From Mustelus asterias (taxonomy: Eukaryota): a DNA stretch of 64,000 nucleotides. Positions 7,971-63,980 of the stretch are shown here, piece by piece. The stretch is taken from NCBI RefSeq assembly GCF_964213995.1, contig NC_135811.1, positions 101,928,001-101,992,000 of the forward strand, read 5' to 3'. The translations under genes were made by a program, and so were the position numbers. Numbering within the stretch: position 1 is the stretch's first letter; the number at the start of each line of letters is the position of its first letter. The notes under the pieces were generated by a model. It saw nothing but the letters and a program-made list of their open reading frames with translations, was not told the DNA's origin and made no database searches.

Positions 7971-8817
7971 CTTGTGATTGATCCAACAGAATAAAAGGAA
8001 AGACATCCATTCATGTCATATCACTGCTTAAAAACGTCGTGGCACTTCTTATACAGGAGAGCTCCCTGTTTCCCTTCGAAGGATTGATGTTAAGTCTAAT
8101 CAAAAATGTAGTCTTCAATGGTGCAGGGACTTTATTGCATGAGCACACTCCCTCAGAGGAGGTGGGTCTCATTAAAAGTATGATGTATTTTCAATTCCTT
8201 TAGGTCATTTGTGGAGTGGGGAAGCATTTCCCTACTGGGGAGCAAAATAATCAGAATTGTCAACCTTTCAGATCTGGCCTTGTGGTGAGACATTAGCAAA
8301 AGCCTGGGAACAGGCTTTCTGGTTTTTCCCTCGATGGTAGAATTGTGGAAACATGAAGTGAGAAAAATCATTCAAATTACAGGGAGGAAGGTTGGAAGCG
8401 GGGGCGGTGGGGGGAGTTAGTAGTGTGGGAGAGCTGCTGTTTTGTTAGACTTGCATTGTGTGCAGATATGGACATATCAGAACTAGATTAGTGAGATCAT
8501 TCTTTGTATCAGCTTGATTCTCTGAGATAGCTTCATGGGTTTTTCTTTGCTATAATAAAACATTGATAAATGTGATGACATCAGGCAAAATATGATAGTA
8601 AATCTTTATAAATGTCTTGGCCTTTTGTTATTTTGCTAACAATCGATTGAGTGCACTAGCACTCAATGAGCTACAGAAGAGTAGTCCAGTGTAGATTTGT
8701 TCTTTCTATTCTTCAAGTAGTTAGGTTTTCCTTTGTATGCCTGAAGGAACTGTTTATCACGGGTTAGTTATTTGGGCTGGACTCCTGCACTGGTGGTAAG
8801 ATGGTTCTGCTTTTGTA

Positions 8818-8981
8818 ATGATGTGGAGATGCCGGCGTTGGACTGGGGTAAACACAGTAAGAAGTCTAATAACACCAGGTTAAAGTCCAACAGGTTTATT
8901 TGGTAGCAAAAGCCACTCTTTTTTGCTTTTGCTACCAAATAAACCTGTTGGACTTTAACCTGGTGTTGTTAGACTTCTTAC
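8818..8981. mobile_element. Penelope-type fold-back insertion, family 1
   Basis: About 55-bp inverted arms; 12-bp TSD TCTGCTTTTGTA at 8806-8817 and 8982-8993. Confidence 0.85.
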
Positions 8982-9214
8982 TCTGCTTTTGTATCCATGT
9001 CTCAGAGTATTTCCAAAATTACCTGTGCTGCTGTCCTGTCCGATTTGTTGACTGCTTCCGGTCTCTGCCTAAGGCAGCTCCAAAGTTAAAGGCCTTTTTT
9101 CACTGACATGATTCCGGTTGTTCTGTACACATGGGATTGTCATTGCATCACATCGGAAAGCAGCATCTCGGGTATCTTTTGGATGTATCATCTGCCTTCT
9201 TCACTGGTTGTAAG

Positions 9215-9430: not shown

Positions 9431-10172
9431 ATAGTGACTGGCAAGTTCTTTTTCTGATGTACTGAACTAAAAAGGCACATCTCAGCTGGCCATTGGGGAA
9501 ATTATAATTTTGCTGACCCGCTGCCAGTTTGGTGACGTTTACCAACCACTGTTGACTGAGACCTACTCACCGGACGACTACCTGTTTCTGAAGGTATAAA
9601 TTACTTACGATGACAGTGCTCTGAAAGCGGATCACCCTGCTTCCCAACCCAAAGAGATTGAAGCCAACAAACTGGGTATTGACCTGGAGAGCATTGAGGA
9701 GAGGAGGAAAATGTGTTCTTTTGTTCATAGCAATAGATTAGTCATATCTATCCGCTTATCTGGATGGGCCACTTCCATGCCTCGTTTGCCAATTATTTGA
9801 GTATAGCCAATGCAAGTTTACTGTAAATTTCTCCAGTGTTGTAAATATAAACCCACACCTTTCTGGATGAGTACAGCTTTTATACCACAATGCAGTTTAT
9901 GCAGATTACTCTTAAAGAGCTCCTGTGCGTTTAGAACTTTCTTTGTCAAAAAAATTGCATTTGTTTCACTGAGTCTTGTCCTGCCAATATCCTCATTATG
10001 ATATTGGAACAGTAAAAGTTAAAAATAGCAGTTTCACCTCAAGACAGCCAGTTGCCAAATGCATCATCTGGGTGAGCAAATATCAAATGAAAAGTGGCAA
10101 TATAAGAGGTCCACTGCAGATCAAGCGGTATCAACCCAAAGCTGTTGAGGCCAACAAACTGGCTATTGACTC

Positions 10173-10363
10173 TGATGTGGAGATGCCGGCATTGGACTGG
10201 GGTAAGCACAGTAAGAAGTCTCACAACACCAGGTTAAAGTCCAACAGGTTTATTTGGTAGCAAATACCATTGTTGGTAGCAAATATCATGGTATTTGCTA
10301 CCAACAATGGTATTTGCTACCAAATAAACCTGTTGGACTTTAACCTGGTGTTGTGAGACTTCT
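10173..10363. mobile_element. Penelope-type fold-back insertion, family 1
   Basis: Near-perfect palindrome with an internally duplicated centre; 9-bp TSD TATTGACTC at 10164-10172 and 10364-10372. Confidence 0.85.
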
Positions 10364-10934
10364 TATTGACTCAGACAGCTCTGCTTGGCACAACTGCTTA
10401 ACCAGCTCAAATATTCGGAATCTATGGCAATGAATTTAAACTGAATACAAATGTAACCTTTACAATGGATGCCGCACTATCTCAGGGCCAACTATGGTTT
10501 CCATAATTTGTGATTAGTGATGGTCTTGGTGATCTAATTGCAGGAAAATCTGTTCAGTAACAAACTGGGAATCCAATGTGGCCCCGGTAGAACTAGCCAG
10601 ATGACTTGATGCCTTGGCTGCTGTGTTAGATATTGGTGCTACTTGGAAGAAAAAATCATCAAAATGGAGCAAGCATGTGTTCCTCAGGAAAGCTGTCGTA
10701 TGTAGATGTTGAGATACATATCTGTATATGAAATTTTTTTAGAATATGCACTTCCTGTCTGCACGTCTGGCTTCTTGTCATGACTTTTGTCATAGTTTTG
10801 GTCAACATTGATCTTACATTGCTTTGTCAGCATTACTCAGTTTTTCACTGCCAGCTATTATAAGGTAATTTCAGGCTCTTGTCACTAGATTATCCGATAG
10901 ATCGCACTACTTAATTGTGTCTCTGCACTATCAT

Positions 10935-11620
10935 AAGATATAGGAACAGAATTAGGCCATTCGGCCCATCGAGTCCACTCCGCCATTCGATCATGGCTGA
11001 TATGTTCCTCATCCCCATTTTCCTGCCTTCTCCCCATAACCTTTCAACCCATTACCAATTAAAAATCTGTCTAGCTCCTCCTCAAATTTACCCGCTGACC
11101 CAGCATCCACCGCACTTTGGGGGAGCGAATTCCACAGATTCACAACCCTTTGGGAGAAGTAGTTTATCATAGAGTCATAGATGTTCACAGCACGGAAACA
11201 GGCCCTTCGGCCCAACTTGTCCATGCCGCTCTTTTTTTAAAAACCCCTAAGCTAATCCCAATTGCCCGCATTTGGCCCATATTTCTCTATATCCATCTTA
11301 CCCATGTAACTATCTAAATGCTTTTTAAAAGACAACATTGTACCCGCCTTTACTATTACCTCTGGCAGCTTGTTCCAGACACTCACCACCCTCTGTGTGA
11401 AAAAATTGCCCCTCTGGACCCTTTTGTATCGCTCCCCTCTCACCTTAAACCTATGTCCTCTAGTTTTAGACACTCCTACTTTTGGGAAACGATATTGACT
11501 ATTTAGCTGATCTGTGCTTCTCCTCAACTCTGTTTTTAAATTTGCTACCCCTTTTCCTAAGACTATGACCTCTCGTCCTAGAATGCCCCACTAGCTGAAG
11601 CATCCGCTCCACGTCTAGCG
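10935..11620 (-). mobile_element. CR1 3' end with a second CR1 3' end nested at about 11165-11517
   Basis: FSQRVVNLWNSLP and FFTQRVVSVWNKLP peptides; two separate microsatellite tails; host resumes at 11518. Confidence 0.88.
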
Positions 11621-13735
11621 ATCAGTTTTCATATTAAAGGAAGCCTTATTCATCAATTGGCCGTGAACTAGCAAAGATTATTATAGGAACAAATTAAGGT
11701 TCGACAGACAGCAGTGAGATGAAGAATTTGTTTCTTGTGGTGGTAAGGACATCACCTGGTGCATGGAAAATTTCCTATTCGTATAGCAACATGTCTACTT
11801 GTTCAGGTGAAAATCACTTGGCTATGTTTGAATATCTTATCTGAGAGGCCCTTGTTCTTTGCATGCTCCTCTCCATCCTGGACTGAAGTTTCAGTTTGGG
11901 TGGTGTTTATATATAGGATCATGCTCCGAGCTCAATTCACCAAAGAGTTTGATGTGATGAGTTGCGTTTATCCTTCGATCACTATCCTTTTAACGATTTG
12001 TAGACTATATGGTGTGAAATCCAATTTGTCAGTATAATTTGGCTTGTGCTGGAATTAGTTGGAATGATAAAATCTAATTAGTTGTTTAACAGCAGCAATT
12101 GCAGTGATCAGAAAAGGCAGGCTTTACGACTTAAAACTTCTAAATCAATTTGTAATCAACTTTATGCAAGTCATACCCAAATATAGTGGCAATACCAGCA
12201 ACCTGAGTTTTAAAGTGATTCTATTCCTACAAAATGAGGCAGTACTTCACTAAGAACAAAGAAAATTACAGCACAGGAACAGGCCCTTCGGCCCTCCAAG
12301 CCTGCACCGATCATGCTGCCCGACTTAACTAAAACCCCCAACCCTTCCGGGGACCATATCCCTCTATTCCCATCTCATTCATGTATTTGTCAAGACGCCC
12401 CTTAAAAGTCACTACCGCTTCCGCTACTGCTACCTCCCCCGGCAACGAGTTCCAGGCACCCACCACTCTGTGTAAAAAAAAAAAATCTGCCTCGTGCATC
12501 TCTTTTAAACCTTGCCCCTCGCACCTTAAACCTATGCCCCCTAGTAATTGACTCTTCCACCCTGGGAAAAAGCTTCTGACTATCCACTCTGTCCATACCT
12601 CTCATAATCTTGTAGACTTCTATCAGGTCGCCCCTCAACCTCCGTCGCTCCAGTGAGAACAAACCAAGTTTCTCCAACCTCTCCTCATAGCTAATGCCCT
12701 CCATTCCAGGCAGCATCCTGGTAAATCTTTTCTGTACCCTCTCCAAAGCCTCCACATCCTTCTGGTAGTGTGGCGACCAGAATTGAACACTATATTCCCA
12801 GTGCGGCCTAACTAAGGTTCTATAAAGCGTCAACATGACTTGCTAATTTTTAAACTCAATACCCCGGCCGATGAAGGCAATCATACCGTATGCCTTCTTG
12901 ACTACCTTCTCCACCTGCATTGCCACTTTCAGTGACCTCTGTACCTGTACACCCAGATCCCTTTACCTATCAATACTCTTAAGGGTTCTGTCATTTACGG
13001 TATATTTCCTATCTGTATTAGACATTCCAAAATGCATTACCTTACATTTGTCCGGATTAAACTCCATCTGCTATCTTTCCGCCCAAGTCGCCAACTGATC
13101 TATATCCTGCTGTATCCTCTGATGGTCCTCATCGCTATGTGCAAATCCACCAACCTTTGTGTCGTCCGCAAACTTACTAATTAATCCAGTTGCATTTTCC
13201 TCCAAATCATTTTTAAAATATATATATATAATTACAAACAGCAAAGATCCCAGCACTGATTCCTGAGGAACACCACTTGTCACAGCCCTCCGTTCAGAAA
13301 CGCATCCTTCCACTGCTACCCTCTGTCTTCTTTGACTGAGTCAGTTTTGTATCCACCTTATCAGCTCACCTCTAATCCCATGCGACTTCACCTTCAGCAC
13401 CAGTCTGCCATGAGGGACCTTGTTAAAGGCCTTACTCAAGTCCATGCAGACAACATCCACTGCCCTACCCTCATCAATCATCATCATCACTTCCTCGAAA
13501 AACTCGATCAAGTTTGTGAGACACAACCACCCCTTCACAAAACTATGTTGCCTCTCACTAATATGTCTACTTATTTCCAAGTGGGAATAAATCCTGTCTC
13601 GAAGAATCCTCCCCAATAATTTCCCGACCACTGATGTAAAGCTCACTGGCCTGTAATTACCTGGATTATTCTTGCTACCCTTCTTAAACAAAGGAACAAC
13701 ATTGGCTACTCTCCAATCCTCTGGGACCTCCCCTG

Positions 13736-13976
13736 TTTTGATGTGGAGATGCCGGCGTTGGACTGGGGTAAACACTAAGAGTTTTAACAACAGGTTAAAG
13801 TCCAACAGGTTTATTCGGTAGCAAATGCCATTAGCTTTTGGAGCGCTGCTCCTTCGTCAGATGGAGTGGATATCCACTCCATCTGACGAAGGAGCAGTGC
13901 TCCGAAAGCTAATGGCATTTGCTACCAAATAAACCTGTTGGACTTTAACCTGGTGTTGTTAAAACTCTTACTGTGT
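13736..13976. mobile_element. Penelope-type fold-back insertion, family 1, with hammerhead motifs in both arms
   Basis: About 100-bp arms centred on GGATATCC (13868-13875); 11-bp TSD GACCTCCCCTG at 13725-13735 and 13977-13987. Confidence 0.9.
13879..13915 (+). ncRNA. Putative minimal type I hammerhead ribozyme
   Basis: CCAT-CTGACGA-A-GGAGC-agt-GCTCC-GAAA-GC-TA-ATGG: intact core, 5-bp stem II, 4-bp stem I, palindromic AGCT stem III. Confidence 0.7.
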
Positions 13977-14606
13977 GACCTCCCCTGCAGCCAATGAGAA
14001 TATAAAGATACTACTTCCTCCATGATTGATTAAATGTAGTGATGGGATAGATGGGAAGTTATGCAGATCGGAAAGGTTCTCCAGTGTCCATGCTGAGTTA
14101 AGTGATCTCGACTTGGGGTTTTTCAAGGCTGCTTCAATTTCCCTCGAGCTGGGGTGGGTGGAGAGCGGTGGGTGGTTCCTGCACTTGATCACTATCCAGT
14201 GATTTGTGTGAAAAGTATATGTATGCAGAAATCAAGTGATTTGGCTTGGGTGTGAGCTTCCTATGTACAAATAGCTTCCTGACACTTGCTGTCTTGGTAT
14301 ATGTTGAAGGAGGACCATTTGGATGATGCACTCTTTTCGGAAAGGAGTGCAGAAATGAGCTGCAGTGGATTATTTAAACAATGGCTGAGTAACCAGATCA
14401 CAGATGGTATAGGGTTCATTTGGATGATGCCTTGAGCAGTAATGCGCCAAGTAGTTTTTGTTTATCTGAAACATGAGATTTGTTTGTTTTTAAACCATGG
14501 TGGGTTGTTTTCTGCACAATGGTTGAGGAATCCTATGTGCATTTAATAATCATCTTGAATTTACCTGTGGGTTTACAGGTGTGTGCTGCTTAAAGTCGTG
14601 CACACC

Positions 14607-14831
14607 ATGTCTAATAAAGATAATAAAACATGTCCTTATCAACAATAATTGAAATTGAAAGAAGAATGAAGTTACCTAAACTTCAAAACAATTTCAAAAC
14701 GCATTTTATTTCCATTTGTACAAGCTGAGTTTTGAAATTGTTTTGAAGTTTAGGTAACTTCATTCTTCTTTCAATTTCATTATTGTTGATAAGGACATGT
14801 TTTATTATCTTTAATTCGCTTTATTAGACAT
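14607..14831. repeat. Long AT-rich inverted repeat (hairpin)
   Basis: Arms 14607-14700 and 14729-14831, near-perfect apart from small indels; 28-nt loop. Confidence 0.9.
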
Positions 14832-15039
14832 TTGCACAAACTATTTTCAGGCTTGGAGTAATCAGGTTGGTGAAGGTACTTAATTTACCTTCCCTGTGTA
14901 TGAGGGCACATATTGGGAGTCTTTCTGTTCAGTATTATGTTTGTTTGCATTGTGGGACCGACAGACACAGATTATAAATACTTGGTTATATTCCGCATCT
15001 GCCGGTAATGACACTCTGAAAAAATCATTCGGAGCTAAC

Positions 15040-15330
15040 ATAGAAAAATACAAATTAGAAGCAGGAGTAAGTCACTCGGCCCTTGAGTCTGCTCCATCAT
15101 TTGATAAGTTCATGGCTGATCTGATTGTAACCGTAACCCCACATTCCGTCCTACCCTGCCCCGCACACCGCCAATAAACTTTCAACCCTTGTTACTCAAG
15201 AATCTGCCTCAAGAATATTCAAAGGCTCTGCTTTCACTGCCTCTTGAAGTGTTCCAAAGAAACTACCCTCTGAGAAAAGATTTTTCCTCATTGCTGTCTG
15301 AACTGCGTGATCCTTTATTTTTAAGTAGTG
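15040..15330 (-). mobile_element. Degenerate CR1 3' end
   Basis: AGAAGCAGGAGTAAGTCACTCGGCCCTTGAGTCTGCTCC resembles the CR1 tail at 10935. Confidence 0.7.
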
Positions 15331-15849
15331 AACTGTTTGTCGTTTAACCTTTTTACCACCTACTGGTTCCATTTTTTAAAAAAAACATTGTGGCTTTGTA
15401 CAGTACTCTGTGAACAGTGACCTAAACAAGTCTGGCAGCGTTGCTTGAGTAAAGGTTTCCCTCCCAGGGCACAAACATAAAGCCTTGTTTCTCAGGAATC
15501 TCCCTTTGTAAACAAAACATTGATTGTCAGTCCAGATGATCTGCTGAGGTTGACCATGGTTATACAGCACCTGCCTATGTTAGTGCTTACGTGTTCGTGG
15601 AATAATTGTTGCTGCAATGCTCATTGGAATTGTCCAAGTTTTTTGTCTTTGCAAGCTGCTTTGATGTTTTCCATGGATAACTTTGGGGCAGAGGGAGGCA
15701 GAATAGGTTGAAATCCGCATTCTTAATGATTTTATAATTTGTTAATACGACAACAGCAACAAAACAATGTGGAACCATAGAATCCCACAATGCAGAAGGA
15801 GGCCATTTTGGATGAGTTCATCCAAAGCCCTGTGGTCTGTATCCCAGCA

Positions 15850-16170
15850 TCCACCAAGTCCCATTCACACATTTTCCCCCATGTTTGATGACCTCTGCAC
15901 CAAAGAATCAAACTTTAAATTCTCATCCTTTTGATTAAATCCCTCCTTACCGTTCCACTTCCTATCTGTGTAATCCCCTATAGTCTTGCTGTAAAACTCC
16001 GAAAACTCTTCCTCCAATTCTGGTCTCTTGTGCATTCCTTGCATACTTCACCCCACCATTGGCAGCTGCGCCCTCAGCCATCTAGGCCCAAAGCTCTGGC
16101 ATTCTATCTCTTAAGTTCGCACGCTCTTGCACACACTTCTGTTAAAACAGAGGAGACTTGGCCTTATTAA
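15850..16170 (+). mobile_element. L2 LINE 3' fragment
   Basis: SHSHI-P...L-DL and FKFLIL-like remnants; degenerate. Confidence 0.5.
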
Positions 16171-16784
16171 TTTTATCTAATTCCTGTGGAGGGTCTTGAC
16201 AATGTTTCCTATTTAATGGTGCTCTTTAAGTGCAAGCTGTTGTTGAGAGTGTGTTTCAGACCGATGACTGTTTGTCAGAACCTAGAGCATGTTGAACTGT
16301 TGGCTGGTGAAGTAAATACAATATTAGTTTGAGAGCTAAGTTTTATTGCTAGCCTTGTCATTTTGTCTGATGTTGACTGTCAGTGAGTAGCCAGTTAAAC
16401 TGCGTGCAGATTCTGCTTGAAATAGAAGCCTTTTAATTGTGCTGTTTAAAAGGGGCCTCCAACCTTTTGTAGAGGTAAGGTCAAACAAACTTGACAATAG
16501 CAGCAATGATATTTGAGAGTGATTCTTCTGGGCTAGAATTAGAGTGCATTGATTTATTTTACTTCTGAATAATCCCCCTTGCTTGTTTAATGTATAAAAA
16601 GGAAATACAAATCATTAATCTAACATTATGATGATTGACATTGCAGTGCCATTTGCAGGACCAGAAAGACAAGTCTTTTCTATTCACTATCCATCAACTG
16701 GCACCCTTTTCTTTTCTTGGGGGCTAGCCTATGGCAGGTGTACATTTCTCCCCCTCTCAGCTACATCCTAAACTTGACATTCAA

Positions 16785-17066
16785 GGGTAGCACCATGGTT
16801 AGCACTGTTGCCTCTGTCAGGGATCCGGGTTCAATTTTGGCCTTGGGTGACTGTCTGTCTGTCTGTCTGTGTGGAGTTTGCATTTTCTCCGTGTTTCCCT
16901 CGGGTGCTCTGCTTTCCTCCCACAGGTTAGGTGGATTGGCCCTTAATGTTAGGGCGATTAGCCAGGGTAAATATGCGTGTTTACGGGGATAGGGCCTGGG
17001 TGGGATTGTTGTCGGTGCAGGATTGATGGGCCGAATGGCCGCCTCCTGCACTGTAGGGATTCTATG
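16785..17066 (+). mobile_element. HE1-like V-SINE, tail A
   Basis: Head, core and GATGGGCCGAATGGCC tail. Confidence 0.9.
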
Positions 17067-17932
17067 GAAACGCAACATCAATGACCCTCCAAAATGGGGA
17101 GCCCTATGGCCTGTGCATTGGCTGGGGATTGGCCTATCAATCCGATGTGGAATTTAGCTTTTGTTTTTCTAACATGTATGTGGCTCATAGTCTCTAAATG
17201 CTCAGTGCAGTACATGATTGTGTAATTCTCCACAGTCTGTCTGATATGCTGTAAAAAGAGGAGGATGTGTTTGTGAGGTGAAAATAGTTCCAATAGATAA
17301 TCTGAAATTTACCCCATCTTCAAAGTAGGAGTTACACTTGTGTGTATTTTTAGATACTGCGTGTATATGCTTTTACAATATTCTGATTTAGAACAAAAGG
17401 AGATTGCAGGGTGATTTGATCTGGTGGTAAAAGGAAAGGGGAATAAAGAATGTTGGGACAGCCAGCAAATAGGATTAGGAATGCTGCTTCTGTGGGGAAT
17501 AAACGGTAATTGGGACTGGTTGGTAGAAGGGCCAGTTTCTTTGTTGTAATTTCTCCGTGACTGTACAGGGACCATTCTGCAGTGATTGACCTGCTCTCTC
17601 AGCAGAGTCAGACCAGCGGTGCAAACAGTTACTGGTGATGGCAACATCTGTCTTTTTCTCTGGCAACTATGATCCTGAGTACTTATTATCTGATCTCTAG
17701 AAAGCCCACAACCTGAAATGACTTTCTTTCGACTATGTTCATGTAAGTGGGAACAGATACTTCACCACTGGAAATCTCTCATGCAATCACCCTCAATAGA
17801 AGGATTCTGTTAGAAAGTTAGGAATATAAATTGCTGTTAACTGTGTGCCATGCATATTTTTTATTGTTGGTGTATTAATGACTGTTCCTACCCTTGGCTA
17901 TGTTCAGACAAGTTTTTTTTCTTTTCCTACAG

Positions 17933-17987
17933 AATATTCTCCTTTCTGGATGTGGTCACCTTGTGTCGCTGTGCTCAGGTTTCCAGG
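17933..17987 (+). CDS. FBXL20: FBXL20 coding exon (F-box): (R)IFSFLDVVTLCRCAQVSR
   Basis: Polypyrimidine tract + AG at 17931-32, GTAAGG donor at 17988; 55 nt, phase 2 to 0; DVVT/QVSR residues fit FBXL20 rather than FBXL2 (recalled sequences). Confidence 0.95.
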
Positions 17988-18477
17988 GTAAGGTTTCTCC
18001 AAATACTTTCTTCACTTTTTTTTCTTAAGTACTAATCTAGATTGCCACAATTGTTCAACTAACCAAAGAAGTGAAAACGCAGGCCAATAACGATTTAGGT
18101 TGTTATCCCTGGTCTAGTGTTAAATCAGCTCACATCAGACAGGGCAGTGATACAGGTGCCTCCACATTAGAAACGAGAAAGTTGACAAGGTTCCTGCTCC
18201 TGGTCAGGATACTTGGGTGGTGCATGCTGGCAAGGGATTGATGCTTTCTGGAGGGGAGAGGAAACATTAGCATGGAAAAAATAGGGGCAAAAAAAACTGA
18301 GCCAGATTCACTTGCTATAAAATAACTCAAACTATATTAATCAAGAATTAACCTGATCAGTACGATGATGCTTTTACAATGAATCATCTGCTTTGGTTTC
18401 TTTACAAAATGTTCGTTCTTGCGTCAAGTCGCCATTGTCCCAGATGGCCATAGACATGACTGGTGGAGATTTAACCT

Positions 18478-23445: not shown

Positions 23446-23545
23446 AAAGGAGAGTGGCTGTATGGTAATGAAATAATCTGTTAACAAGCGGAGACTATTG
23501 GGGAATAGTTGTTTCTCAGACTGAAGGGATACTTAAGTGGTGTCT

Positions 23546-23600
23546 ACACAGTAAGAAGTCTCACAACATCAGGTTCCAAGTCCAACAGGTTTGAACACCA
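23546..23600. mobile_element. 55-bp family-1 PLE fragment
   Basis: Matches the arms of 8818-8981; 12-bp TSD TAAGTGGTGTCT at 23534-45 and 23601-12. Confidence 0.8.
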
Positions 23601-44829: not shown

Positions 44830-44924
44830 GGCCGAGTGGTAGAGAATATTTCGAAACGATGTGGTGGATTTTTACGGAAACTTAGCCTGCGAGGGTGCCT
44901 CGGTGTTGGTGATAACTCTTTAAG
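44830..44924 (+). CDS. FBXL20: FBXL20 coding exon: GRVVENISKRCGGFLRKLSLRGCLGVGDNSL(R)
   Basis: cacAG acceptor, GTAAAA donor; 95 nt, phase 0 to 2; first LRR. Confidence 0.95.
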
Positions 44925-55469: not shown

Positions 55470-55560
55470 ATGTCAGGTTCATGTCACACTATCTGTAAAC
55501 CCCACGACTTGCCTGGGCTTGCAAAATCTCACTAACTGTCCTGGCTGGAGACAATTCACA

Positions 55561-55763
55561 CCGGTTTCCTCCCACAGTCCAAAGGTGTGCGGGTTAGGTT
55601 GATTGGCCATGCTAAAATTGCCCCTTAATGTCCTGGGATGCGTAGATTAGAGGGATTAGCGGGTAAAATATGTAGGGATATGGGGGTCGGGCCTGGGTGG
55701 GATTGTGGTCGGTGCAGACTCGATGGGCCGAATGGCCTCTTTCTGTACTGTAGGGTTTCTATG
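55561..55763 (+). mobile_element. 3' half of a young HE1-like SINE
   Basis: Begins mid-core at CCGGTTTCCTCCC; near-identical to 57336-57540. Confidence 0.9.
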
Positions 55764-58612
55764 AACCCAAGATCCCAGTTGAGGCCGTCCTCATGTGTGT
55801 GGAACTTGGTTATCCGTCTCTGCTCAGCGATTCTGCGTTGTTGTGTGTTGTGAAGGCCGCCTTGGAGAACGCTTACCCGAAGATCAGAGGCTGAATACCC
55901 GTGACTGCTGAAGTGTTCCCCGATTGGAAGGGAACATTCCTGCCTGGTGATTGTTGAACGGTGTTCATTCATTTGTTGTCGTAGTGTCTGCATGGTCTCA
56001 CCAATGTACCATGCCTCGGGACATCCTTTCCTGCAGCGTATCAGGTAGACAATGTTGGCCAAGTTGCAAGAGTATGTACCATGTACCTGGTGGATGGTGT
56101 TCTCACGTGAGATGATGGCATCCGTGTCGATGATCCGGCACGTCTTGCAGAGGTTGCTGTGGCAGGGTTGTGTGATGTCGTGGTCACTGTTCTCCTGAAG
56201 GCTGGATAGTTTGCTGTGGACAATGGTCTGTTTGAGGTTTTACGGTTGTTTGAAGGCAAGAAGTGAGGGTGTGGGGATGGCCTTGGCAAGATGTTCGTCT
56301 TCATCGATGACATGTTGAAGGCTCCGGAGACGATGTCGTAGTATCTCCGCTCCGGGGAAGTACTGGACAACGAAGGGTACTCTGTCCGCCGTGTCCCTGT
56401 TTGTCTTCTGAGGAGATCGGTATGGTTTTTTGCTGTGGCACGTCGGAACTGTCGATCGATGAGTCGAATGCCATCCTGTTCTTATGAGGGCATCTTTCAG
56501 CGTCTGTTGGTGTCTGTTGCGATCCTCCTCATCCGAGCAGATCCTGTGTATACGGAGGGCTTGTCCGTAGGGGATGGCTTCTTTAATGTATTTAGGGTGG
56601 AAGCTGGAGAAGTGGAGCATCGTGAGGTTATCCGTGGTCTTGCGGTAAAGTGAAGTGCTGAGGTGACCGTCCTTAATGGAGATGCGTGTGTCCAAGAATG
56701 CAACCGATTCCGGAGAGTAGTCCATGGTGAGTCTGATGGTGGGATGGAACTTGTTGATGTCATCGTATAGTTGTTTCAATGATTGTTCACAATGAGTCCA
56801 AAGGAAGAAAATGTCATCGATGCATCTAGTGTATAGCATCGGTTGAAGGTCCTGTGCGGTGAAGAGGTCTTGTTCAAACCTGTGCATAAAGATGTTGCCA
56901 TATTGAGGTGCGAATTTGGTCCCCATGGCTGTTCCGTGTGTCTGGATGAAGAACTGGTTGTTGAAGGTGAAGACGTTGTGGTCCAGGATGAAGCGGATGA
57001 GTTGTGGAATTGCATCTGGAGATTGGCAGTTGTCGGCATTGAGTACTGAGGCAGTTGCAGCAATGCCGTCATCGTGGGGGATGCTGGTGTAGAGTGCCGA
57101 GACATCCATTGTGACGAGGAGTGCTCCTGGTTCAACTGCCCCACATATGCTGAGTTTCTGTAGGAAGTCTGTAGGGCGGCACGGTAGCACAGTGGTAAGG
57201 GCGGCACGGTAGCACAGTGGTTAGCACTGCTGCTTCACAGCTCCAGGGACCTGGGTTCGATTCCCGGCTTGGGTCACTGTCTGTGTGGAGTTTGCACATT
57301 CTCCTCGTGTCTGCGTGGGTTTCCTCCGGGTGCTCCGGTTTCCTCCCACAGTCCAAAGATGTGCGGGTTAGGTTGATTGGCCATGCTAAAAATTGCCCCA
57401 TAGTGTCCTCGGATGCGTAGATTAGAGGGATTAGTGGGTAAAATATGTAGGGATATGGGGGTAAGGCCTGGGTGGGATTGTGGTTGGTGCAGACTCGATG
57501 GGCCGAATGGCCTCCTTCTGTACTGTAGGGTTTCTATGATTTCATCATGACAGAAGCTGGGGGTTCTTTGTACAATGGGTATTGATGCCCTTGACGTAGC
57601 CGGAGAGGTTCTCTCGCAGGGTCCCAGTGCCTGATATGATGGGATGGCCGGGTGTGTTGGCCTTGTGTATCTTCAGGAGGCAGTAGAGATCTCCAATGCG
57701 GGGAGCACGTGGGATGAGAGCAAGGAGGGTGCTCTGAAGGTCCGGATCAAAGGCCTTGATCAGTCTGTTGAGTTGATGGGTGTGTTCTTTGGTCGGATCT
57801 GTGGGTAACTGTCTGTAGTGTTCGTCGTTGTTCAGTTGTCGGTACACTTCTTTGCAGTAATCCGTTCTGTTCAGTATGACGGTGGCCCCTCCTTTGTCTG
57901 CTGGTTTGATGACGATGTTGCGGTTGGTCTTGAGAGCGCGGATGGCGCTGCGTTGTGCTTGGATGACGTTCGGGGCTGTCTTGTGAGTGCGGCTAATGAA
58001 TCTGGCATTGACGCACCTCCTGACGGCTTGGGCATACATGTCGAGTCGAGGGCAGCGGCCTTCCGGAGGAGTCCAATTTGACTCTTTCCTCTTCGGTTGC
58101 TGCACCGCGGATCTCTCTGTTGGCTGTTCCGGTTCATTAGCTGTCTCATTGTGTTCGCTGTTGGCCTCTTGGGGTTTGTGGAAGAACTCCCGCAGCCTCA
58201 TTCACCTGATGAATCCCTCTGTGTCCGCTGCGAGACCGATGGGGTCCGTTTTAGTGGTGGTGCAGAAATTGAGCCATCGGCTGAGAACTTCGATTTCGTC
58301 TAGTTGAAGTGTGTAGTCCAACAAGTTGACAATGGACTTCCCTGCAGTGGTACTGTTTTCTATTGTGGTACTGGGGGAGGCTTGGTTGCTGCTGGTGATG
58401 ATGCAGAGTTTCTCAAGTTTCCTGTTCTTGGTGTGCATGTAGATGGCGTAGTTCCGTTGTTTCGTCTGCTTGGCAATATTTCGCAGCTGGTCTGCGTCCT
58501 GAGCGCAACTTGAGAATATGGATTCTCAATTGGTTTCCAGGTTGCAGCGTTTGCTGTCGAGCTGGTGTATGAGGTGGTTGAGGAGGGTGAGAGAGGTGCG
58601 ACGGCAAAGTCT
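55761..58612 (-). mobile_element. Penelope-like retroelement (RT + GIY-YIG endonuclease), frameshifted
   Basis: IVIKPADKGG, MDVSALYTSIP, GTAMGTKFAP, RCIDD (RT); NIVYLIRC...WYIGET...NEHR (GIY-YIG); several frameshifts and a SINE insertion. Confidence 0.95.
57174..57543 (+). mobile_element. Young HE1-like SINE with duplicated 5' end, inside the Penelope ORF
   Basis: AGGGCGGCACGGTAGCACAGTGGT at 57173-57196 and 57198-57221. Confidence 0.95.
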
Positions 58613-58851
58613 CGTCAAAGAAAGCTCTTAGCTGTTAGAAAATAACCAGGCCCAAGATCAAAGCATGACCTGACCTCACCTGACATAAAATGGGACTTCA
58701 TCTTAATTTCTACATTAAATTTCAGTTGGAGAACATTTTTATTTTGATACAATCATGATTTAAGTAGTAAAGCAGTCTTGTCTCACTGGATTGAGGTCTC
58801 ATTGTACCATCCATGGCCAAGGAGAATGCCTTGGTTTCCCTAGAAAGCGAC

Positions 58852-61071: not shown

Positions 61072-61271
61072 NNNNNNNNNNNNNNNNNNNNNNNNNNNNN
61101 NNNNNNNNNNNNNNNNNNNNNNNNNNNNNNNNNNNNNNNNNNNNNNNNNNNNNNNNNNNNNNNNNNNNNNNNNNNNNNNNNNNNNNNNNNNNNNNNNNNN
61201 NNNNNNNNNNNNNNNNNNNNNNNNNNNNNNNNNNNNNNNNNNNNNNNNNNNNNNNNNNNNNNNNNNNNNNN
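61072..61271. other. Assembly gap (200 N, probably a placeholder size)
   Basis: Run of exactly 200 N. Confidence 0.99.
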
Positions 61272-61380
61272 CGACCAGAGAATGTGCTCCTGTCTGCATT
61301 CTGCCTGACAGCTCTTTCATTTGTTGTCCGCAACAGCTGCTGTTTATTCTCTCTGTTGCATCTTTTTCCCATTCGCCCAT

Positions 61381-62449
61381 CTTTTTTTTTCTCCTCCCTC
61401 TTTCTCTCTCTCTCTCTCTTCCCCCCTCTCTCTCATTCTCTTGCCCTTCCCCCCTCTCTCTCTCTCCCCTCTTCCTCTTCCCCCCCTCTCTTCCTCTTCC
61501 CCCTCTTCCTCTTCCCCCACTCTCTCTCTCTTCGCGCCCCTCTCTCTCTTCGCGCCCCTCTCTCTCTTCGCGCCCCTCTCTCCTCTTCGCGCCCCTCCCT
61601 CTCTTCGCGCCCCTCTCTCTCTTCGCGCCCCTCTCTCTCTTCGGCCCCCTCTCTCCTCTTCGGCCCCCTCTCTCCTCTTCGGCCCCCTCTCTCCTCTTCG
61701 GCCCCCTCTCTCCTCTTCGGCCCCCTCTCTCCTCTTCGGCCCCCTCTCTCCTCTTCGGCCCCCTCTCTCCTCTTCGGCCCCCTCTCTCCTCTTCGGCCCC
61801 CTCTCTCCTCTTCGGCCCCCTCTCTCCTCTTCGGCCCCCCTCTCCTCTTCGGCCCCCCTCTCCTCTTCGGCCCCCCTCTCCTCTTCGGCCCCCCCTCTCC
61901 TCTTCGGCCCCCCTCTCCTCTTCGGCCCCCCCTCTCCTCTTCGGCCCCCCCTCTCCTCTTCGGCCCCCCCTCTCCTCTTCGCCCCCCCCTCTCCTCTTCG
62001 GCCCCCCCTCTCCTCTTCGGCCCCCCTCTCCTCTTCGGCCCCCCCCTCTCTCCATCTCGGCCCCCCCCTCTCTCCATCTCGGCCCCCCCCTCTCTCCATC
62101 TCGGCCCCCCCCTCTCTCCATCTCGGCCTCCCCCCTCTCTCCATCTCGGCCCCCCCTCTCTCTCCATCTCGGCCCCCCTCTCTCTCCATCTCGGCCCCCC
62201 CCCTCTCTCCATCTCGGCCCCCCCCCTCTCTCCATCTCGGCCCCCCCCCTCTCTCCATCTCGGCCCCCCCCTCTCTCCATCTCGGCCCCCCCCCTCTCTC
62301 CATCTCGGCCCCCCCCCCTCTCTCCATCTCGGCCCCCCCCCTCTCTCCATCTCGGCCCCCCCCCTCTCTCCATCTCGGCCCCCCCCCCTCTCTCCATCTC
62401 GGCCCCCCCCCCCTCTCTCCATCTCGGCCCCCCCCCTTCCCCCTCTCTC
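61381..62449. repeat. Polypyrimidine minisatellite with 18-23 bp units
   Basis: Units CTCTCTCTCTTCGCGCCC, CTCTCTCCTCTTCGGCCCC, CTCTCTCCATCTCGGCCCCCCC. Confidence 0.97.
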
Positions 62450-62617
62450 AGCAAAATGAAGATTTATTTGGCTCACTTTTTCCTGAAGGGTGGATACGTC
62501 AATCACTAAAGAGACACATGTTATTGTAATTGAATTTTAGTTGACACTGATTCTCTTTTGTTAACAATGGCTGAATTGATTTACTATTTTTTTTGTACCT
62601 CTTTGCTACATATGCAG

Positions 62618-63890: not shown

Positions 63891-63892
63891 TA

Positions 63893-63980
63893 CAATAAGA
63901 AGTCTCACAACACCAAGTTAAAGTCCAATAGGTTTATTTGGTAGCGCAAGCTTTCGGAGTGTCGCTCCTCCTTCAGGTGA
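63893..63980 (-). mobile_element. Family-1 PLE fragment with degenerate hammerhead
   Basis: Minus strand CAC-CTGAAGG-A-GGAGC-gac-ACTCC-GAAA-GC-TT. Confidence 0.75.

Follow-up and report, generated by a model that had tools for sequence, protein, structure and literature searches.

The legend to Fig 2 of PMC8557442 describes complex insertions of Penelope-like elements (PLEs) that consist of an inverted 5'-truncated copy with a tail of 30–40 bp at one end, and head-to-head copies with palindromic junctions and a target-site duplication (TSD) are described for Pen2a_Av in excerpts of PMC3846280. Dual minimal hammerhead ribozymes on opposite strands have likewise been published for PLEs, and the excerpted text of PMC4209133 reports no cleavage of such minimal hammerheads as monomers and low cleavage as dimers; dimer cleavage is also credited to Lunse et al. 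in a passage of the review PMC6765202. For an anole PLE, sections of PMC11167929 describe two reverse transcriptase (RT) start sites, extension of both strands, and a protein-assisted ribozyme, which cleaves only when the protein is present, is dispensable for insertion in vitro, and in those sections has no RNA-seq ends at its cut site.

The locus analysed here is a 241-base insert (13736–13976) of PLE ends, arranged as a fold-back in intron 2 of an F-box gene, within a 64,000-nt stretch of the genome of the shark Mustelus asterias (the window, to which all positions refer). It resembles the EN+ PLE complex insertions (Fig 2 of PMC8557442; Pen2a_Av in PMC3846280, both in part) in its head-to-head pLTRs, its 33-bp tail on one arm, its 11-bp TSD, its junction palindrome, and its pLTR hammerhead, but its arms are both too truncated for any ORF, the shark family is very abundant, and a rule for the ends has been counted here (52 of 53 pairs, see below). 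With the metazoan PLE minimal hammerheads in the excerpted text of PMC4209133, it shares the short stem I, an unpaired base between positions 9 and 10.1, G10.1-C11.1, the palindromic 15.2–16.2, and the occurrence of dual copies on opposite strands, whereas stem II has 5 bp here against 7–8 bp in the Schistosoma families of that text, and the triplet here is CUA. The Anolis Poseidon element PAc, in the sections of PMC11167929, also has two 3' end classes with a ribozyme ~60–100 nt upstream of them; in contrast to it, the shark family has a CX2-5CxxC linker, and its ORF starts at the long end and not inside stem II. Non-LTR retrozymes (bioRxiv 10.64898/2026.07.22.740005) are, like the insert, PLE-derived, non-coding, and equipped with a type I hammerhead, but the insert is a single inverted pair, not a tandem, with no two same-strand ribozymes to free a monomer or circle. 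Retrozyme identity, which calls for tandem same-strand hammerhead units, was rejected on this ground.

Very probably, the insert consists of two 5'-truncated Penelope-like ends placed head to head, with a single integration event as their likely origin, and its hammerhead is a passenger predicted to be base-paired and idle. The DNA itself carries the family identity, a TSD, a position nested within a LINE, two unlike ends (a long and a short one), and a palindromic junction, and the fold-back is the usual form of the family.

Structure of the insert and its host intron

The inverted repeat has a spacer of zero, with its centre at 13871|13872 within the palindrome GATATC. Its arms (13786–13871 and 13872–13957) are 95% identical and extend beyond a 3-nt gap to 13772 and 13974 (Table 1). 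The right junction of the insertion is also present in contigs from two further samples. The LINE that it splits is presumably CR1-like. In another organism, a contig has position 14226 joined to 22 LINE-like letters, too short a stretch for interpretation.

The host gene is on the plus strand, so the intact hammerhead lies in the sense strand. In addition to the exons in Table 1, an exon at 44833–44925 matches FBXL2 (E 1.4e-14). The initial annotation had placed the motif in an intron of FBXL20; the exons and the FBXL2 match uphold an intron of an FBXL2/FBXL20-family gene, and by diagnostic residues the gene is putatively FBXL20 rather than FBXL2.

Table 1. Features of the insert, its hammerhead, and its host gene (positions in the window unless stated otherwise)
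Feature	Position	Strand	Remarks
Exon 1 of host gene	~63.1 kb before window	+	
Unpaired same-subfamily copy (97%)	35,370–35,256 bases before window, intron 1	sense	intact hammerhead, with TSD
Exon 2 of host gene	ends ~7.4 kb before window	+	splices in frame to 17933–17987
Host LINE reverse transcriptase fragment, split by insert	13344..13735, resumes after 13977	-	RVT_1 E 7.4e-12 (frame 13344–13856)
Target-site duplication, left copy	13725..13735	+	11 bp
Three extra T bases, TSD to start of element homology	13736..13738	+	family-reference homology starts at 13739
Tail of ~33 bp, one arm only	13739..13771	-	long 3' end, ref ~430; stops just before ORF start of longer copies
Inverted 5'-truncated pLTR arm (long end)	13739..13871	-	mirror hammerhead 13864–13828 with G12A and 3-nt deletion
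GATATC palindrome, fold-back centre	13869..13874		junction inside the family's main 5'-end peak, ref 280–295
Sense pLTR arm (short end, ref ~395)	13872..13976	+	99% to reference copy
Minimal type I hammerhead	13879..13915	+	4-bp stem I, 5-bp stem II, A9.1 insertion, AGCT palindrome replacing stem III, CUA triplet
Stem I	13879–82/13912–15	+	
C3–A9	13883–89	+	extra A at 13890
Stem II	13891–95/13899–903	+	loop AGT
G12–A15.1	13904–07	+	GC at 13908–09
U16.1, A17	13910, 13911	+	predicted cut after 13911
Target-site duplication, right copy	13977..13987	+	11 bp
Exon 3, FBXL2/20-family gene	17933..17987	+	closes ~25-kb intron 2, which holds the insert

The hammerhead motif and its conservation

The sense arm had been described as carrying a hammerhead with all core bases, stems I and II, an extra A, and an AGCT palindrome, and rereading the sequence confirmed each of these. 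The intact minimal core spans 13883–13911, with C3 U4 G5 A6 N7 G8 A9, G12 A13 A14 A15.1, and U16.1 H17 all present. The reported change of GAAA to AAAA in the mirror copy is likewise correct; it is a C>T at 13839, at a CpG, which amounts to G12A and occurs in 3 of 116 arms. Recognition of the hammerhead comes from a descriptor and from covariation; an Rfam search of 10000–18000 returned no hammerhead among 21 matches at E ≤ 10, which were all chance matches of the hairpin type. A chance occurrence is ruled out for the 36-nt motif, of which the genome contains 971 exact copies but none of the reversed control.

A descriptor holding the core bases only placed 280 motifs in the retrieved DNA. Among these, 190 have U-A and 49 have C-G at pair 2.1/1.1 of stem I, and the palindromic 15.1–16.1, which would allow a dimer stem III (AGCT here), is GC in 233 and CG in 8. 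The latter 8 belong to a different hammerhead family, with an ACGT palindrome in stem III and at least one inverted pair, found at another genomic locus and at ~136.5 and 173 kb before the window. Across 59 distinct variants, 91.5% of stem cells are paired and 38 cells show double changes, and 0 of 500 shuffles were as high on either value, counts that are not probabilities, since the variants were hand-picked and their relatedness inflates the test; structures slid along the alignment gave 27–46%. The cleavage triplet is CUA in the subfamily of the insert and CUU or CUC in sister subfamilies. Since stem I covaries between subfamilies, selection is indicated for the active master elements and not for the insert itself.

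The expectation of the initial annotation that core positions be conserved over flanking ones holds against the upstream flank and fails against the downstream flank in unselected arms. Over 116 arms, non-CpG core positions differ in 9 of 1041 cases (0.86%) and the upstream flank, with nine polymorphic sites dropped, in 151 of 7706 (1.96%; p = 0.01), and CpG positions in the core vary less than other CpGs (10/232 vs 58/457). In the 36 arms that were not flank-selected, the core (5/324) and the downstream flank (25/1327) show no difference. Altogether, the core is intact in 98 of the 116 arms that span the motif. At the ribozyme CpGs, the C (ref 308, 319, and 324, in positions of the family reference) varies in 12, 19, and 9% and the G (ref 309, 320, and 325) in 6, 4, and 3%, the pattern that a tolerance of active masters for C>U variants would produce. 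The simplest reading would be that the ribozyme is selected in active masters and that the copies decay neutrally. The lower variation of the core is attributed tentatively to subfamily variation at the level of the masters, although it may also include selection after insertion.

Family identity and abundance

Copy numbers were taken as exact pattern matches in the 3.68-Gb genome, with 0 matches for reversed controls. Besides the copies of the 36-nt motif given above, there are 16,385 of a 51-nt downstream flank and 165,414 of a 31-mer common to sister subfamilies. The genome thus holds well over 100,000 leftover ends of one Penelope-like family, among which the insert is ordinary.

In longer copies (L015, L004, and L030), the pLTR is continuous with the end of a GIY-YIG-type endonuclease on its upstream side and with the start of an ORF, and RT, on its downstream side, with RVT_1 at E 4.4e-7 and 1.2e-5 and GIY-YIG at E 3.5e-4, just under Pfam's cut-off. 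Their translations contain a C-x4-C-xx-C linker upstream of GIY-YIG, which is of the CX2-5CxxC form, and a C-xx-C within GIY..YIG that accords with a CCHH motif. In the excerpts of PMC8557442, this linker and the CCHH nuclease motif define the Neptune/Nematis clades and the linker is absent in Penelope/Poseidon, and on that definition the family is of Neptune/Nematis type; the presence of the linker rules out Penelope/Poseidon. Judged by sequence, the insert is a pLTR remnant, the 3' end of an EN+ Neptune/Nematis-type PLE. The continuity into RT and GIY-YIG, together with the core and the AGCT palindrome, supports the earlier view that the insert is a terminal repeat of a Penelope-like element and bears a minimal hammerhead of the dimer type. 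A literature search on hammerhead, Penelope, and shark, supplements aside, found no paper on this shark family, although one may exist. In itself, the insert is a dead stub of an already known class and matters little; the family as a whole has a modest use, owing to its one-long/one-short end rule and its many hammerheads in pre-mRNA (see below).

The fold-back as the usual form

The first 100 matches of a flank probe, chosen irrespective of the ribozyme, gave 90 insertions (two adjacent loci that resemble a local duplication both being counted): 53 divergent pairs, with a limit of 2 kb, and 37 insertions that have no partner in the retrieved flanks. The 3' ends fall into two classes, at about ref 393 and ref 430, and 52 of the 53 pairs have one of each (binomial p 1e-14), with the long end on either side (28 vs 24 pairs). 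A TSD of 9–16 bp (mode 12) is present in 45 of the 53, and both arms span the ribozyme in 34; of these, 24 have two intact cores, 9 have one, and 1 has none. The insert has the inverted 5'-truncated copy, the one-sided tail of 30–40 bp, and the TSD alike. The 5' ends concentrate at ref 280–295, where 27 of the 81 arms at risk terminate (2.1% per base vs 0.26–0.37% elsewhere), and the junction of the insert, at ref 290, lies within this peak. The near-strict end rule and the 5'-end profile together offer a countable genomic read-out for the mechanism of PLE integration.

Palindromes of 230–260 bp with the same centre recur in the family, as they would if a non-autonomous, MITE- or retrozyme-like mini-element replicated as a palindromic unit. 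We consider this quite improbable, given that the 5' junctions and spacers form a continuous range, which reaches kilobases, and that the long end takes either side, variation that is expected from independent truncation of a longer RNA; nor is a tandem array present.

Proposed origin of the pair

By analogy with the anole Poseidon element, the RT/GIY-YIG protein would nick both strands ~11 bp apart, and cDNA would start at two internal sites ~35 nt apart. Both cDNAs would end just 5' of the ribozyme and be joined via the GATATC palindrome or microhomology. The ribozyme, having been selected in active masters, would decay neutrally in the insert, and no effect of the insert on splicing is expected. 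This two-site priming model derives from a Poseidon element and would be carried over here to a Neptune/Nematis-type family.

Snap-back self-priming at GATATC may instead have produced the fold-back, one arm of which the endonuclease would have trimmed to give the short end; this tentative possibility fits the DNA of the insert as well as two-nick priming does. Junctions coincide with self-complementary words (GATATC in the insert and several other copies, ATTTG/CAAAT at ref 332–339), rare variants are common to both arms of a pair, and self-priming as well as EN-mediated resolution of tails have been proposed (excerpts of PMC3846280 and PMC8557442, respectively). In many pairs, however, the 5' ends are very unequal or the arms lie tens to hundreds of bases apart, and in vitro the anole enzyme uses two start sites and extends both strands (PMC11167929, in part). 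Snap-back alters only the route by which the pair formed, not the verdict on the insert, which would still be a passenger stub.

5' ends at the predicted cut site

Since two copies in the window end at the cut site, 5'-end rates were estimated for the whole genome by counting patterns and sampling 30 loci at each position. The apparent 5' ends per base amount to 0.5% at ref 330, to 2.5, 1.6, and 2.6% at ref 332, 333, and 334, and to 1.2% at ref 347 (with one row at ref 347 later re-called untruncated). At ref 337 they reach 2.6–3.5%, a value that has an assumed denominator and is inflated by two degenerate bases. Because ref 337 is as enriched as ref 332–334, or more so, the excess is read as spreading broadly across an imperfect palindrome that favours fold-back joins, and microhomology of such joins would make up most of it. 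When only junctions to unrelated DNA are considered, the rate is 0.72% at ref 332–334 vs 0.20 and 0.19% at ref 330 and 347 (ratio 3.5, interval 1.5–9), and 0.4–0.6% at ref 337, which overlaps ref 332–334.

At most ~7% of arms start within one base of the cut site, and at least 93% of those reaching the region read past it, which is in line with uncleaved RNA as the main template. It is conceivable, if unlikely, that the stubs form a fossil run-off map, in which every fold-back was primed once from each of two start sites, the main 5'-end peak just upstream of the ribozyme marks the RNA 5' end, and a minor peak at the scissile bond marks templates cut in the germline by the hammerhead. If true, this would supply the first evidence for cleavage by a minimal PLE hammerhead in vivo.

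Predicted sequestration of the ribozyme

Equilibrium folding predicts -169.5 kcal/mol for the full hairpin vs -104.5 with the ribozyme fold enforced, and this difference of 65 kcal/mol supports, as a prediction, the earlier proposal that the hairpin sequesters the ribozyme. The ~100-bp hairpin would zip on transcription, and the motif, if open, would still need a dimer partner, probably together with the protein of the element. That the antisense arm is transcribed first, as the initial annotation stressed, is true of the insert but carries no information, since a head-to-head pair presents its antisense arm first on either strand. No special or regulatory meaning of a locked ribozyme found support in the comparison with other copies: no form of the family is commoner than the fold-back, the presence of two intact cores in 24 of 34 pairs marks the one-sided G12A as decay, and an unpaired intact sense copy lies in the same pre-mRNA. 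In view of the pair geometry, the CpG transition, and this unpaired copy, the lock is a by-product and not a device.

A conditional intronic ribozyme, which its antisense arm would keep inactive until unwinding, editing, or pairing in trans let it cut the pre-mRNA, would account for an intact sense core opposite a mutated mirror copy and for a hairpin that is a perfect long duplex, and the sense copy of identical subfamily that this pre-mRNA also carries might in principle serve as dimer partner. This potential partner is nonetheless ~49 kb off, in another intron, and the barrier to be overcome is the predicted 65 kcal/mol. The state itself is common, intact cores being the rule among arms and exactly one core being intact in 9 of 34 pairs, and minimal PLE hammerheads show no cleavage as monomers and low cleavage as dimers (excerpts of PMC4209133) or none without protein (excerpts of PMC11167929). 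We judge a conditional ribozyme to be very improbable and retain the passenger reading.

Neighbouring copies in the host gene

The 264 kb around the host gene contain ~24 core-bearing PLE-type hammerhead motifs, six of them in the sense strand of its first two introns. Five of these are in intron 1, where one is unpaired and intact (Table 1). Such abundance suggests that minimal hammerheads are largely harmless in pre-mRNA. Two other fold-back insertions in intron 2 (8815–8988 and 10173–10368) are without a ribozyme core; they belong to sister subfamilies and have long and short ends and TSDs, and their arms end at ref 332–336, at or just 3' of the cut site. The fold-back at 10173–10368 also holds a nested inner palindrome.

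Elsewhere in the window, a broken and interrupted PLE body of the same family lies on the minus strand (55483–58613), ~91% identical to L015 and L030, which includes RT and GIY-YIG-type regions but lacks an intact pLTR, and two older single pLTR remnants on the same strand (23538–23592 and 63892–63979) are 77–82% identical. A separate AT-rich inverted repeat at 14607–14832 (arms of 35 and 54 nt, 98–100%) is MITE-like and unrelated to PLEs. An assembly gap of 200 N at ~61074–61273 is followed by a long purine/pyrimidine-skewed simple repeat at 61300–62500.
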